The position numbers were made by a program, and so were the translations under genes. A stretch of 64,000 nucleotides of DNA from NCBI GenBank assembly GCA_021735655.1, contig JAIPGM010000001.1, forward strand, positions 1 through 64,000, given 5' to 3'. Source of the stretch: Candidatus Omnitrophota bacterium (lineage in GTDB: Bacteria > Omnitrophota > Gorgyraeia > Duberdicusellales > 4484-171). The notes under the pieces were generated by a model that did not search any database, was not told the DNA's origin, and was given only the letters and a program-made list of their open reading frames with translations. This document shows, in pieces, positions 37,307 to 40,785 of the stretch. Position 1 is the first letter of the stretch; each line of letters opens with the position of its first letter.

Positions 37307-37465
37307 ATGATTATAAGATTTGTAAAATCTCAAAGTATTCTTGAATATGTGGCAATAGTTTTAGTGGTTGCTGCGGCAATGAGTGCAATGACTTTTTATC
37401 TCTCTCGGGCCTTGAGAGTAAGAGATCGGCATTTGGCTCAAGAGATGAATGAGGCTAATCGGTGA
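37307..37465 (+). CDS. flp: small Flp-like pilin (52 aa)
   Basis: Not in the supplied ORF track (<60 aa). MIIRFVKSQSILEYVAIVLVVAAAMSAMTFYLSRALRVRDRH... has the same KxQSxLEY motif, hydrophobic helix and YLxRxLxxR block as its neighbours. Confidence 0.6.
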   Translation: MIIRFVKSQSILEYVAIVLVVAAAMSAMTFYLSRALRVRDRHLAQEMNEANR

Positions 37466-37470
37466 GAATT

Positions 37471-37725
37471 ATGAGTAAAATTAATAGAAAAAAGAATAAA
37501 ACTCAGAGTATTTTGGAGTACTTGGCGGTTTTAATTATGGTTGTCGGAGGCGGCACTGCAGCTACAATATTTTTTGGCAGCGGGGTTAGCTCTGGTCTTG
37601 GTCAAACTGAAAATCATATCCAAGAAGTTTTACCTCAAGCAGTTGATAATACTTATGAGGCTACAGTGGTTCCCCTTCCTGAGGTAGTTTATACCGGAGA
37701 ACCTGGCCCAGGAGGAACAGAATAA
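37471..37725 (+). CDS. flp: Flp-like pilin
   Basis: Track ORF 37462-37725. ATG 37471 gives MSKINRKKNKTQSILEYLAVLIMVVGGG. Confidence 0.6.
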   Translation: MSKINRKKNKTQSILEYLAVLIMVVGGGTAATIFFGSGVSSGLGQTENHIQEVLPQAVDNTYEATVVPLPEVVYTGEPGPGGTE

Positions 37726-37726
37726 T

Positions 37727-37885
37727 ATGAAACACAAAGCTCAAAGCTTTCTTGACTATGCAGCCTTAATCGCGATTGTCGCCGTATCGCTGTTAGTTAT
37801 GAGTAGCTATGTGTTTAGATCAATTGATGCCCGGGTTGGTCATATCTGGGCTGATTTATATGATATACAAAACGGGGTGAGGTAA
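37727..37885 (+). CDS. flp: small Flp-like pilin (52 aa, Asp at +5)
   Basis: Not in the ORF track. MKHKAQSFLDYAALIAIVAVSLLVMSSYVFRSIDARVGH... Confidence 0.55.
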   Translation: MKHKAQSFLDYAALIAIVAVSLLVMSSYVFRSIDARVGHIWADLYDIQNGVR

Positions 37886-37905
37886 TCGATAAAGGAGGTT
37901 GAATT

Positions 37906-38112
37906 ATGAGGAAAAGGAAGAAAGCGCAGAGCATCTTAGAGTATATCATTGTTCTATCAGCGATTGTTCTGGCAGTAATTGCCGCCTCTAAAGAAGGCGG
38001 GCCAATTCAAGGGGCAGTTGAACAGATGTTCAACGACTCTTCGCAGCTAATAAAAGATAAATCTTCGGATTTTCTTAATCGGGCTGCTGGTGGCCAGTCG
38101 GCTGTAGAATAA
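37906..38112 (+). CDS. flp: Flp-like pilin
   Basis: 68 aa. MRKRKKAQSILEYIIVLSAIVLAVIAAS. RBS AAGGAGG upstream. Confidence 0.6.
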   Translation: MRKRKKAQSILEYIIVLSAIVLAVIAASKEGGPIQGAVEQMFNDSSQLIKDKSSDFLNRAAGGQSAVE

Positions 38113-38190
38113 TAATTAACGGCAGTGCTTAATGAGAAAAAATTCATAGGCACAAACTAGAATATTACTAGATAAGAGGAGGTGTTAAAG

Positions 38191-38499
38191 ATGTTGGTTA
38201 AGTTGAAAAAAGCACAGGCAACAGCAGAATATGCGATTCTTTTTGCTGTGGTTATTGGCGCAGCCATGGGTGTGCAGAGCTATGTGAAAAGAGCTCTTCA
38301 GGCAAGAATCCATGATGCTGCTAATCAGTTTATCGACAAAACTGGAGGTACTAACTATCAGTGGGAAGGTGTAGCTGGTACTAAAACTACAACTGATCAG
38401 AGTTCGGAAAGATATTTTACTGAGAATATCGAAGCTGATACACAGTATACTTATAATGAGACTATGCAGGCTAACTATGAATCAAACATGACTCGCTAA
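38191..38499 (+). CDS. flp: Flp-like pilin
   Basis: Track ORF starts at GTG 38182 inside the RBS. ATG 38191 gives MLVKLKKAQATAEYAILFAVVIGAAMG...YVKRALQARIHD. Confidence 0.6.
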   Translation: MLVKLKKAQATAEYAILFAVVIGAAMGVQSYVKRALQARIHDAANQFIDKTGGTNYQWEGVAGTKTTTDQSSERYFTENIEADTQYTYNETMQANYESNMTR

Positions 38500-38542
38500 G
38501 AGTTAGCTTGGTTGGTAAGGTTAAGTAAAAGGAGGTAATAAA

Positions 38543-38881
38543 GTGTTAATTCAAATGAGAAAAGCTCAGAGTACCCTAGAGTACGCTCTGCTTATTGGTG
38601 TGGTGGTGGGAGCTTTGCTTGCCATGCAGACTTATTTAAAGAGAAGTATTCAGGGCCGAATGCAGATTATTGGTGACCAGATGGGGGATCAGTATGATCC
38701 AGACGGAACTTACCGTGAAGAGAACATGGTAGTTAATAACGCTCAAATTATAGAGACTACAACTGATGGTTTTACTCCCACGACTCGTACTGAGATTACC
38801 GGTGGTTTCCAGCAGATGAATTCAGTTAGAGAAGTTCAAGCAATGGAAGAAGATGAATGGGAACAAGGGAACGCTAATTAA
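38543..38881 (+). CDS. flp: Flp-like pilin
   Basis: 112 aa. (V)LIQMRKAQSTLEYALLIGVVVGALLAMQTYLKRSIQGRMQ. GTG start 7 nt after GGAGG. Confidence 0.6.
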   Translation: MLIQMRKAQSTLEYALLIGVVVGALLAMQTYLKRSIQGRMQIIGDQMGDQYDPDGTYREENMVVNNAQIIETTTDGFTPTTRTEITGGFQQMNSVREVQAMEEDEWEQGNAN

Positions 38882-38904
38882 TAATTTTTTAAGGTAAGGT
38901 AGCT

Positions 38905-39210
38905 ATGAGAAGAGCACAGTCTGTGATAGAATATGCCTTAGTCTTGGGCATGATAGTTATGGGTTTTTTGGGGATTCAGGTCTATCTAGCTCGGGGTGTG
39001 CAAGGAAAGTTCCAAGAGACAACTGATCAAATGGCTGATCAGTATGGTCATGGGGTAAGTGATGTCCAGGAACATTCTCAAGCTTCAACTAGCGTCTGGG
39101 AGTTAACCTTTCCTGGTTGGGGCTCGCCAACAACCAAGACTTGGACCGATGGTTCATATTCTTCAACTTCAAAGCGAGGAGTAGCTTCCTTAGATAAAAA
39201 TTGGCCGTAA
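38905..39210 (+). CDS. flp: Flp-like pilin
   Basis: 101 aa. MRRAQSVIEYALVLGMIVMGFLGIQVYLARGVQGKFQE. Confidence 0.6.
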   Translation: MRRAQSVIEYALVLGMIVMGFLGIQVYLARGVQGKFQETTDQMADQYGHGVSDVQEHSQASTSVWELTFPGWGSPTTKTWTDGSYSSTSKRGVASLDKNWP

Positions 39211-39228
39211 ACGCCAAAGGAGAAGATA

Positions 39229-39531
39229 GTGATTAAGTATAGGCAAGTCAAACAAAGGCCGGCTCAACTCATTATAGAGTATGCCGGCATCGTAGCTCTT
39301 ACGGTAGTGGTTTTGTTGCTTATGCATAACTATCTTAATCGAGGTTTACAGGGAAAGCTAAAGGAAAATTTAGATACTTTTAATGATGAGCAGTGGGCAG
39401 GATCTAACCAAAATCGAGGAATGAGTAAGACGACAGCTACATTTAGTTATGAAGGCGGTCAGTATGAGGGGTCACTCTCTACTAGTTCATCGACCAGGAA
39501 CGATAGAATGAGGTTTACTAGTCCGAGGTAG
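39229..39531 (+). CDS. flp: Flp-like pilin
   Basis: 100 aa, GTG start. ...KQRPAQLIIEYAGIVALTVVVLLLMHNYLNRGLQGKLKE. Confidence 0.55.
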   Translation: MIKYRQVKQRPAQLIIEYAGIVALTVVVLLLMHNYLNRGLQGKLKENLDTFNDEQWAGSNQNRGMSKTTATFSYEGGQYEGSLSTSSSTRNDRMRFTSPR

Positions 39532-39534
39532 CTT

Positions 39535-39960
39535 ATGTTGATTAAGGCCAATAACTTTAGAAAAACAAATGCTATCTTAGAATATGGAGTTGTTCTTGTA
39601 ATTGTCCTTGGAGCAATGGCAGGAATAAATGCTTTTTTAAAGCGCAATATTCAGCGCCGAGTGCACGATGAGAGTGATGCCTGGTTAGGTCACGGTCAAG
39701 GGCTAGAGTGGGAGATGTCAATAACTCATAGTGATTCATCTAGTAATGTCAACAGGGATGAAAATATGGGAGCTAATTTTGATATAAACGCACAGACTAG
39801 TAGTAGCTCGGTGACTTATTCGCCGCCGATGCCACCTTATATTATGGAGCATAAGGGCTCAGCTTTACATATTCAAGATGCTCCTTCGGCTGCGCCGCTT
39901 CCCGATTATCCGGATTTAGAATATAAAGACTGGGAGGATCGAGAGTGGACAGATAAATGA
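39535..39960 (+). CDS. flp: Flp-like pilin with longer C-terminal domain
   Basis: 141 aa. ...RKTNAILEYGVVLVIVLGAMAGINAFLKRNIQRRVHD. Confidence 0.55.
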   Translation: MLIKANNFRKTNAILEYGVVLVIVLGAMAGINAFLKRNIQRRVHDESDAWLGHGQGLEWEMSITHSDSSSNVNRDENMGANFDINAQTSSSSVTYSPPMPPYIMEHKGSALHIQDAPSAAPLPDYPDLEYKDWEDREWTDK

Positions 39961-39985
39961 TTTGTATTTGTTTTTAAGGAGAAAA

Positions 39986-40519
39986 ATGTTAAGACTATTT
40001 TCTAATAAAAAAGCACAAGCAATGGTTGAGATGGCTATCCTCGGACCGATAGTTTTAGTAGCTGTCGGCATGTTAGTTACCTATATTGCTAAGGTTAATA
40101 ATGACCAATATGCTTTGATGGCTGCTTTTCGTTATGCTTTAGCTAAATCGCATGCCGAGAATAAGGCTGTTGCTTATGGCACTTGGGATGATCGTCGGAT
40201 GGCTGATGCGACCAGTCCGATTTTAGGTAAAAAAACTACTAGTAGTGGTGCTGGTTACGTGTTATGGGCTATTCCTAAAGTAACCGGTCAAGGAGAAGAT
40301 CCTAAAAAGGGAATGTGGATGGATGTTAACCGTTTTCCTGAATACGATCTTGGTGAACAAGCTAGCAGTGGTTCAGTTGAACCGCGTTACTTTACTACAA
40401 CTGTCTCAACGGTTACTGCAAGCAGTACCAGTGGTGGCAGGCACGCCGGCGTCGTTGAGGCAATGATCTATAAAATAGATAATAAATATTATGGCCAGGC
40501 TAGAGGCCATGGTAGATAA
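39986..40519 (+). CDS. tadE: TadE-like pseudopilin
   Basis: Track ORF from TTG 39962. ATG 39986 gives MLRLFSNKKAQAMVEMAILGPIVLVAVGMLVTY, which matches the TadE-like N-terminal (E-F/M-A) domain. 177 aa. Confidence 0.5.
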   Translation: MLRLFSNKKAQAMVEMAILGPIVLVAVGMLVTYIAKVNNDQYALMAAFRYALAKSHAENKAVAYGTWDDRRMADATSPILGKKTTSSGAGYVLWAIPKVTGQGEDPKKGMWMDVNRFPEYDLGEQASSGSVEPRYFTTTVSTVTASSTSGGRHAGVVEAMIYKIDNKYYGQARGHGR

Positions 40520-40539
40520 TTGTTAGGGAGTGATATTTT

Positions 40540-40785
40540 ATGAAGATAAGAAAAGCCCAGAGTTTACTAGAGTCGAGTGTAGTTTTTCTGGCTGGGGCAA
40601 TGATCATTGGTGCAGCTACCGGTCTTTTTGCCTGGGGCATTGCCCATATTCCAATTCGTCAGATGACTTATGAGATTAGTCGAGTTGCAGCTGGAACGCC
40701 GATGCGCCAGGTGAGTGCAGATGGTGCTCAAAAATCAATGAAGGATGATTTATTTCCGACTTATGTGGTTGCGGCTCTAGAGTAA
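40540..40785 (+). CDS. Flp/TadE-like pilin family protein
   Basis: 81 aa. MKIRKAQSLLESSVVFLAGAMIIGAATGLFAWGI (E at +5, no Tyr). Confidence 0.5.
   Translation: MKIRKAQSLLESSVVFLAGAMIIGAATGLFAWGIAHIPIRQMTYEISRVAAGTPMRQVSADGAQKSMKDDLFPTYVVAALE

Follow-up and report, generated by a model that had tools for sequence, protein, structure and literature searches.

The array of pilin-type genes and its common motif

The 64-kb window analysed here comprises positions 1 to 64,000 of contig JAIPGM010000001.1 from a Candidatus Omnitrophota bacterium. All coordinates are positions in this window unless another locus is named. The window contains a head-to-tail series of 13 small open reading frames (ORFs) of 51–206 amino acids on the plus strand (36683–42514), which is broken by only one ORF of 500 amino acids (Table 1). 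Each of the 13 ORFs encodes a short basic leader, followed by an eight-residue motif of the type K-A-Q-S-I-L-E-Y and about 20 hydrophobic residues. A sequence-only reading of this region had described a conserved DNA block of about 25 nucleotides at the 5′ end of each pilin gene between 37310 and 40580 and had suggested that it might serve as a substrate for recombination between gene cassettes. The block, taken here as 24 nucleotides (eight codons) per gene, indeed heads the pilin genes. Its degenerate consensus AAARCNCARAGYNTNYTNGARTA matched seven times in the window with at most two mismatches, compared to 0.08 matches expected from shuffled sequences, and all seven matches were 5′ ends of array genes. 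Since the protein motif heads 13 ORFs, the feature is wider than described before and extends from 36683 to 42514.

All 13 copies are complete, possess a start codon and a signal peptide and lie in direct orientation on one strand. Most of them have their own Shine-Dalgarno sequence, which suggests expressed genes rather than silent donors. Gene 7 starts with GTG at 38543 and is preceded by AAAGGAGG. These genes had been read as pilin-type genes whose N-terminal module is constant while the C-terminal parts vary, and this reading proved correct. Most of them can be aligned over about 45 codons, covering the hydrophobic helix and a Y-x-K/R-R-x-x-Q-G motif, whereas their C-terminal parts are about 10% identical. 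The downstream sequences had been called unrelated, which is correct for the C-terminal parts but not for the first 45 or so codons.

An AlphaFold2 model of the gene 7 protein, computed with 21 orthologues, showed a confident helix at residues 2–43, and the C-terminal part had a predicted local distance difference test score (pLDDT) below 50. Such a helix would be expected for the α1 segment of a pilin but does not by itself identify one. A sequence search of the PDB with a gene-7 profile returned nothing at E ≤ 1.

Table 1. Coordinates of the array genes, of the leader elements and of the Tad genes around the array.
Feature	Position	Strand	Block (position, residues)	Description
Gene 1	36683..37303	+	36710-36733, KAQIALEY	206 amino acids, class-III-signal protein, acidic C-terminal tail
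Gene 2	37307..37465	+	37325-37348, KSQSILEY	52 amino acids, Flp-sized pilin
Gene 3	37471..37725	+	37498-37521, KTQSILEY	84 amino acids, pilin-like
Gene 4	37727..37885	+	37736-37759, KAQSFLDY	52 amino acids, Flp-sized pilin
Gene 5	37906..38112	+	37921-37944, KAQSILEY	68 amino acids, pilin-like
Gene 6	38191..38499	+	38209-38232, KAQATAEY	102 amino acids, pilin-like
Gene 7	38543..38881	+	38561-38584, KAQSTLEY	108-112 amino acids, pilin-like, most conserved N-terminus
Gene 8	38905..39210	+	38911-38934, RAQSVIEY	101 amino acids, pilin-like
Gene 9	39229..39531	+	39259-39282, PAQLIIEY	100 amino acids, pilin-like
Gene 10	39535..39960	+	39562-39585, KTNAILEY	141 amino acids, pilin-like; Asn at +1 in all orthologues
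Gene 11	39986..40519	+	40010-40033, KAQAMVEM	177 amino acids; xQAMVEM/L signature kept in orthologues
Gene 12	40540..40785	+	40552-40575, KAQSLLES	81 amino acids, pilin-like; Ser at +6 in all orthologues
Gene 13	42359..42514	+	42374-42397, KTQTIIIY	51 amino acids, Flp-sized pilin, 3′ of tadG
TadG-like	40822..42324	+		500 amino acids (alternative start 40903); Pfam Tad PF13400, 28 bits vs 22.3
Sigma-70-like promoter match	36471..36500	+		TTGAAA-18-TATATT with TG; 10/12 consensus; predicted, pattern only
GEMM-I clan aptamer, cyclic diguanylate (c-di-GMP)-I type	36517..36628	+		RF01051 (clan CL00126), 38.7 bits vs gathering threshold of 35
RcpC/CpaB-like	26764-27576	+		270 amino acids; PF16976, precomputed Pfam match on a 100%-identical Logan contig
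Secretin with TonB_C	27639-29279	+		PF00263, E = 2e-45
TadZ-like ParA domain fused to TadA/CpaF ATPase	29422-31590	+		722 amino acids; AAA_31/ParA 4-185, T2SSE 369-647
Second, stand-alone T2SSE ATPase	31594-32661	+		Pfam match
TadB-like and TadC-like platform proteins	43165-44013, 44029-44895	+		one Pfam T2SSF domain (PF00482) each

The DNA similarity of the blocks was analysed with respect to their amino acid sequence. The four 27-mers given as examples of a conservation at the nucleotide level start at 38561, 37921, 37498 and 40552 and have 16–19 of 27 bases in common. The mean pairwise identity over 24 nucleotides is 0.596 for all 78 pairs, with 0.69 at codon positions 1 and 2 and 0.41 at position 3. 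Two copies with the same residue use the same codon in 52% of the cases, compared to 48% predicted from the codon usage of the window. When each codon was redrawn 5000 times from its synonymous set, a block identity of 0.585 ± 0.012 was obtained (P = 0.19). The longest in-register exact run between blocks is 10 nucleotides and thus shorter than the mean maximum of the resampled blocks (11.1), and no exact match between different genes, wherever located, exceeds 11–12 nucleotides. A repeat finder reported copies with 62–76% identity to the reference. Apparent exact runs of 17–31 nucleotides between different genes resulted from ORF or flank coordinates that physically overlap. The DNA similarity of the block is what the shared amino acids predict, without excess synonymous conservation, and the statement on nucleotide conservation was therefore too strong.

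These values also bear on the possibility that the block is kept for a reason at the RNA level, either as a structure for translation initiation or as the binding site of a regulator. Its location 6–30 nucleotides from each start codon would be in line with such a function. However, the distance is not fixed (2 to 10 codons), the variability at third positions is that expected from codon usage, and synonymous sites change freely between orthologues, which renders this explanation highly improbable.

The residues of the motif were counted in 87 genes from seven genomes. Position -2 is occupied by K or R in 82 genes, position -1 by A in 61, S in 16, T in 8 and G in 2, position +1 by Q in 80 and N in 7, position +5 by E in 75 and D in 7, and position +6 by Y in 73. 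According to the Flp model (G/XXXXEY), cleavage would take place between the small residue and Gln, which places Glu at +5 and Tyr at +6. Translated, the block reads K-[A/S/T]↓Q-S-x-L-E-Y and corresponds to the class III (Flp/archaeal-type) prepilin motif. We consider it very probable that the block represents the codons of the class III prepilin-peptidase recognition and pilus-assembly motif in 13 anciently diverged paralogues. In the proposed motif, position -2 is basic and position -1 small (A/S/T/G), the peptidase would cut ahead of Gln +1, positions +5 and +6 are Glu and Tyr, and the hydrophobic α1 helix comes next. The paralogues would be Flp-sized pilins, pilin-like proteins of 100–140 amino acids and a TadE-like pseudopilin, all encoded in one co-oriented operon. 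Every subunit would be cut by the same peptidase, and its N-terminal helix would be packed into the same filament or tip complex. Selection at the protein level on this motif alone would lead to a DNA similarity of about 60%. Both the cleavage site and the division of the paralogues into a major pilin and minor or tip pilins are what we infer from the sequences. By its size, position and motif gene 11 is a candidate TadE/TadF-like pseudopilin, with no Pfam match.

Several observations weigh against the assignment of the block to the class III motif. The residue at -1 is A, S or T in 85 of the 87 genes and G in only 2, and the canonical residue is Gly. Matches to the relevant Pfam families stayed below the gathering cut-offs. 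For Class_IIIsignal (PF04021) gene 6 scored 21.3 bits and gene 7 scored 17.1 bits at a cut-off of 23.7, and for Flp_Fap (PF04964) the best score was obtained with gene 9 (14.5 bits, E = 0.031) at a cut-off of 32.2. We regard both matches as weak but specific, with Class_IIIsignal as the best Pfam similarity. Moreover, a prepilin peptidase (Peptidase_A24, TadV/CpaA) was found in none of the approximately 38 window proteins compared to Pfam; ten further window proteins were scanned against NCBIfam only. The prepilin peptidase gene may be located outside the 64 kb. Finally, the 5′ module of distant relatives is sometimes homogenised at the DNA level (see below), so that protein selection is not the sole force acting on the module across the family. 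In favour of the assignment, some homologues carry the Joint Genome Institute (JGI) names 'Flp pilus assembly pilin Flp' or 'UPF0333'.

Comparison with syntenic relatives and strains

The only other assembly of the exact strain is a Logan contig with 100% identity, as determined by exact look-ups of the ATPase and gene 7 proteins. The exact TadG-like protein was not on record in the corresponding look-up; in the Logan assembly this protein is called with 473 amino acids. For a comparison between species six syntenic loci with identities from 85 down to 55% were used (L009, L003, L006, L012, L013 and L015). All six showed the same gene-size series and the same neighbours, and the positional assignment resulted in 13 orthologue groups. 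The groups have kept their own block signatures, namely KAQSFxDY (group 4), KAQATAEY (6), KAQSTLEY (7), KxNAILEY (10), KxQAMVEM (11), KAQSxxES (12) and KTQxIxIY (13). In the orthologous blocks the amino acids are kept and the synonymous positions differ freely. The best match was the positional orthologue for 96.5% of the C-terminal parts and for 88% of the N-terminal parts, the misses being short, fast-evolving N-terminal parts of groups 3, 8 and 9.

The individual groups differ in their conservation. Positional orthologues of gene 1 were present in all six syntenic loci, Asp at +5 of gene 4 is retained in seven of seven genomes, and position +5 of gene 13 is Ile or Leu in all five orthologues found. 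The C-terminal part of gene 2 shares 48–94% identity with its orthologues. For gene 6 the corresponding values are 79–96% for the N-terminal and 42–85% for the C-terminal part. The C-terminal part of gene 7 shows identities from 82 down to 38% between orthologues, so that C-terminal parts which vary between paralogues are nevertheless conserved within their groups. Full-length orthologues of gene 7 with identities from 85 down to 40% occur in many Omnitrophota metagenome-assembled genomes. Gene 3 is the most variable and least conserved member of the array, with only 15–45% identity in the C-terminal part.

Orthologous blocks have an identity of 0.75, compared to 0.600 for paralogues within one genome and 0.596 for paralogues from different genomes. 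Over 84 nucleotides the paralogue identity amounts to 0.445 within and 0.443 between genomes, which is not a significant difference. Paralogues of the same genome are therefore no more alike than those of different genomes, and no homogenisation within genomes is apparent. Seven pairs of strain-level contigs from independent samples or assemblies (99.9–100% identity) were colinear over the covered part of the array. The same was observed for a contig with 92% identity which covers genes 6–9. The sequence-only reading had pointed to copy-number differences between relatives as a sign of recombination in the block. A single copy-number change was detected in the clade, a tandem duplicate of gene 5 in L009, the closest species-level relative. 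The two copies (5b, 2994-3170; 5, 3193-3390; coordinates of L009) encode 58 and 65 amino acids, are 89% identical over their first 90 nucleotides and share an exact run of 35 nucleotides. The junctions of the duplication are located in the region of the ribosome-binding site (RBS) and in the 3′ coding sequence, outside the block. From its sequence this copy is best described as an ordinary whole-gene duplication.

With these data the proposed role of the block in recombination could be evaluated. In this proposal the 25-nucleotide blocks provide scattered stretches of homology at which RecA-type recombination or gene conversion takes place, leading to expansion, contraction and chimera formation in the window array. 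The blocks are real, have direct orientation and stand at the head of every gene. In addition to the gene 5 duplicate, gene 3 varies in length (84 amino acids in the window, 131 amino acids in L003, 8767-9162, and L015, 8711-9106), and the N-terminal part of gene 8 from L015 scores higher with gene-7 N-terminal parts than with its gene-8 orthologues. However, the L015 gene 7/8 pair is not among the pairs with high DNA identity. In E. coli, efficient exchange by RecA usually depends on a stretch of about 20–30 bp with perfect identity, and it drops sharply as sequences diverge. With runs of 10–12 nucleotides and 60% identity the blocks fall short of this, and in our view they are no recombination substrate here. 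The missing excess of synonymous identity, the lack of homogenisation within genomes, the order and content kept across six genomes and seven strain pairs and the position of the L009 junctions all point in the same direction. For the window clade the proposal is largely refuted, and we consider it very unlikely.

A site-specific rearrangement of the shufflon or invertase type, with the block as recombinase target, is even less plausible and can practically be dismissed. The presence of a short repeat ahead of each variable cassette resembles such systems. In contrast, all copies are direct and on one strand, no relevant inverted repeats were found, no recombinase domain was found among the locus proteins scanned, the core of the block varies at the DNA level, and no rearranged variants occur among the strains.

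The array had also been likened in general terms to pilin shuffling systems. In the Neisseria pilE/pilS system a single expressed gene takes up sequence via long conserved DNA tracts from silent copies, which are truncated at the 5′ end and lack a promoter. Both systems have clustered pilin copies with constant and variable parts. The copies in the window, however, are complete with RBS and signal peptide and are stable between strains; silent truncated donors, extended tracts of identity and mosaicism between strains were not found. On sequence grounds, the 13 distinct pilin-type genes make up an operon that is both old and stable. More generally, short DNA 'repeats' at the head of paralogous genes for secreted proteins can be nothing but shared signal-peptide codons, and a synonymous-site test together with the synteny in relatives quickly separates such codon sharing from DNA repeats.

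Mosaic pilin paralogues in distant Omnitrophota

A scan of a genome collection with the gene-7 profile yielded 80 loci, nearly all labelled Omnitrophota, and a metagenome scan yielded 80 more. The homologues were labelled Candidatus Omnitrophica or Omnitrophota. Using a motif detector, 4–13 class-III-signal ORFs per complete locus were found across Omnitrophota. Among 4228 within-locus pairs eight pairs in 7 of 161 loci were at least 85% identical over the first 120 nucleotides and had C-terminal parts with only 23–71% protein identity. In these mosaic pairs a 5′ tract of about 100–170 nucleotides, from the RBS to about codon 48, is nearly identical, and the 3′ parts that follow have diverged. 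They were found in L074 (6872-7040 versus 7969-8137), L078 (3722-3907 versus 4204-4391), L065, L069, L128, L142 and L163. Chimeric cassettes, which the sequence-only reading had envisaged for the window array, were not seen in the window clade, where the order is kept and strain pairs are colinear, but may have counterparts in these distant loci.

The clearest tract was observed in L074. Two genes which are 1.1 kb apart share 169 nucleotides with 98.8% identity, the first 157 of them being identical. The shared tract begins precisely with the RBS and extends to around codon 48; both the sequences upstream of the RBS and the 3′ parts have diverged. Synonymous sites were compared using the codons for identical residues. 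Identical codons were found in 43 of 48 cases in the N-terminal part versus 7 of 22 in the C-terminal part for L078 (P = 2e-6), in 23 of 30 versus 3 of 16 for L053 (P = 4e-4) and in 21 of 33 versus 3 of 18 for L054 (P = 0.003). The window served as a control and showed no such contrast (0.44 versus 0.46).

Two paralogue lineages X and Y, defined by their C-terminal parts, coexist in five genomes. Their N-terminal parts have an identity of 0.708 within a genome (third positions 0.575), compared to 0.65–0.67 (about 0.415) between orthologues. In four of the five genomes the residues -2 to +2 of X and Y co-vary by genome (RGQS, KGQN, KAQN and KAQS).

Judged from these sequence patterns, it is likely that young duplicates have exchanged the entire 5′ module, either by partial gene conversion or by the formation of chimeras. 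The exchange in the distant arrays is not seeded by the 25-nucleotide block and is not seen in the window clade. The general idea of recombining pilin genes therefore likely holds in the wider family, on a different substrate, a long identical module. It has to be considered that each mosaic comes from a single short-read assembly with no second contig among the loci collected, and that the numbers per pair are small. Furthermore, the C-terminal part of the L074 pair keeps 10 of 14 identical codons, so that a recent duplication followed by very fast C-terminal change is possible as well. A literature search for gene conversion between Flp paralogues gave nothing specific.

As an explanation for the block, family-level concerted evolution would mean that the 5′ module from the RBS to about codon 48 is episodically homogenised between young duplicates, which keeps the helix common to all, and that the window array is quiescent and long diverged. 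The L074 tract, the synonymous contrast in three loci, the greater similarity of X and Y N-terminal parts within genomes and the eight mosaic pairs speak for this scenario. Nothing comparable was detected in the window or its six syntenic relatives, and together with the limits of the mosaic data this makes it an unlikely explanation. The class III motif in anciently diverged paralogues remains our preferred explanation of the block.

For the family as a whole we tentatively suggest that in the Tad pilin arrays of Omnitrophota the constant 5′ module (RBS, signal peptide and α1 helix, about 100–170 nucleotides) may evolve in concert as one unit, which would be repeatedly reset by conversion between young duplicates while the 3′ parts diverge; this could be true, but we would not rely on it. 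The window array would then be a stabilised end product, possibly for prey or host recognition under the control of a c-di-GMP riboswitch. If true, such a process would give rise to pilin variants with new exposed surfaces, while the scaffold for assembly stays fixed. The mosaic paralogues of the distant relatives offer a case in which partial gene conversion could be studied in an uncultured phylum.

The surrounding Tad locus, its leader and related systems

The genes around the array encode a secretin, an RcpC protein, a ParA/T2SSE fusion protein, a second ATPase, TadG and two proteins with a single T2SSF domain (Table 1), which together form the parts list of a Tad (type IVc) pilus. From its gene content the array is part of a Tad pilus operon in an Omnitrophota bacterium. 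The C-terminal TonB_C domain of the Tad secretin is the same in all syntenic loci. The atypical arrangement of a ParA–ATPase fusion followed by a second ATPase is conserved in the relatives. Two ORFs at 32853-33863 and 33889-34902 were considered as tandem paralogues, but they show no significant similarity. A protein of 479 amino acids (34981-36420, plus strand) with a helix-turn-helix-like N-terminus and no Pfam family has a conserved place between the ATPases and the array in all syntenic loci; in L074 it has 654 amino acids. Judging from its sequence it could be a regulator of the locus. An IS200-like Y1 transposase gene is located between the array and tadB in L003 (15281-15919), L012 (8597-9277) and L015 (16836-17555) and is absent from the window.

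Relevant passages of an earlier study already report Tad loci as common in Omnitrophota (PMC10066038). For Velamenicoccus archaeovorus LiM and Velamenicoccia genomes the presence of TadB, TadC and RcpA was scored, as far as the relevant passages of this study and of a preprint show (PMC10066038; bioRxiv 10.64898/2026.06.07.730766). These loci belong to the same phylum, and according to these passages Tad clusters are common and adjoin giant ORFs, as in the window. A multi-pilin array, its orthology structure and a riboswitch leader are not described in the relevant passages.

The window shares with the Tad loci of Aggregatibacter (flp-tad) and Caulobacter (cpa) the secretin, RcpC, a TadZ-like protein, TadA/CpaF, two single-T2SSF genes and TadG, as well as short pilins with Glu +5 and Tyr +6 after the predicted cleavage site. 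Usual Tad loci contain one to three flp genes and tadE/F, whereas the window has 13 class-III-signal genes, and the usual Gly at -1 is replaced by Ala, Ser or Thr. The window further differs in the fusion of the TadZ-like domain to the ATPase, in the second ATPase, in the TonB_C domain of the secretin, in the lack of a tadV gene in the window and in the Flp_Fap scores below the cut-off.

Several co-encoded pilins with a constant N-terminal module are also known from archaea, for example Haloferax PilA1-6 with their common hydrophobic domain. Class III signal pilins of archaeal Epd-like pili (PF04021; PMC6668835) resemble the array in the same way, but the window represents a bacterial diderm locus with a secretin, and its PF04021 scores lie just under the cut-off. 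Tad systems have been inferred to descend from archaeal Epd-like pili (PMC6668835), and the resemblance to the class III signal fits this ancestry.

The Kil system of Myxococcus xanthus is a Tad pilus for predation in which sets of minor pilins form interchangeable 'Tip' complexes (PMC12075869). Both systems represent Tad loci of a predator (a putative one in our case) with many pilin-like proteins that have a common α1N helix and cleavage site and different exposed C-terminal domains. The tips of the Kil pilus are TadE/F/G-like trimers whose genes are dispersed over four clusters, whereas the window proteins are mostly small (51–141 amino acids) and encoded in a single array. By analogy, Kil is a plausible nearest functional model for the maintenance of many pilin paralogues. 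A very pilin-rich Tad operon with 13 positional orthologues across Omnitrophota species would fit predators or parasites which decorate their Tad pili with minor or tip pilins.

The leader aptamer is located between the promoter-like site and gene 1. It was aligned to the GGC variant model with an enlarged loop. In the six relatives the leader aptamer was not found at the Rfam gathering threshold; targeted E-value searches in L009 and L012 revealed matches to RF03167 at the same place with 29.8 and 30.5 bits, which is below gathering. The sequence features suggest that a single promoter probably drives the pilin operon, with a c-di-GMP-type riboswitch in its leader, both the riboswitch control and the operon transcription being predictions. 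A literature search for a c-di-GMP riboswitch in connection with Tad pili gave nothing specific.

The window contains four GEMM-I clan aptamers on the plus strand (36517-36628, 45196-45283, 46782-46870 and 53060-53253), which precede plus-strand genes, namely the pilin array, an ORF at 45324-46652, an ORF at 46959-48458 and a giant ORF, respectively. Promoter-like sites were found ahead of the first two aptamers. The giant ORF starts at about 53363 (plus strand), encodes more than 3546 amino acids, runs off the end of the window and adjoins the Tad locus. A gene for a GGDEF diguanylate cyclase (9535–10686, minus strand) is located in the same window as the four aptamers.

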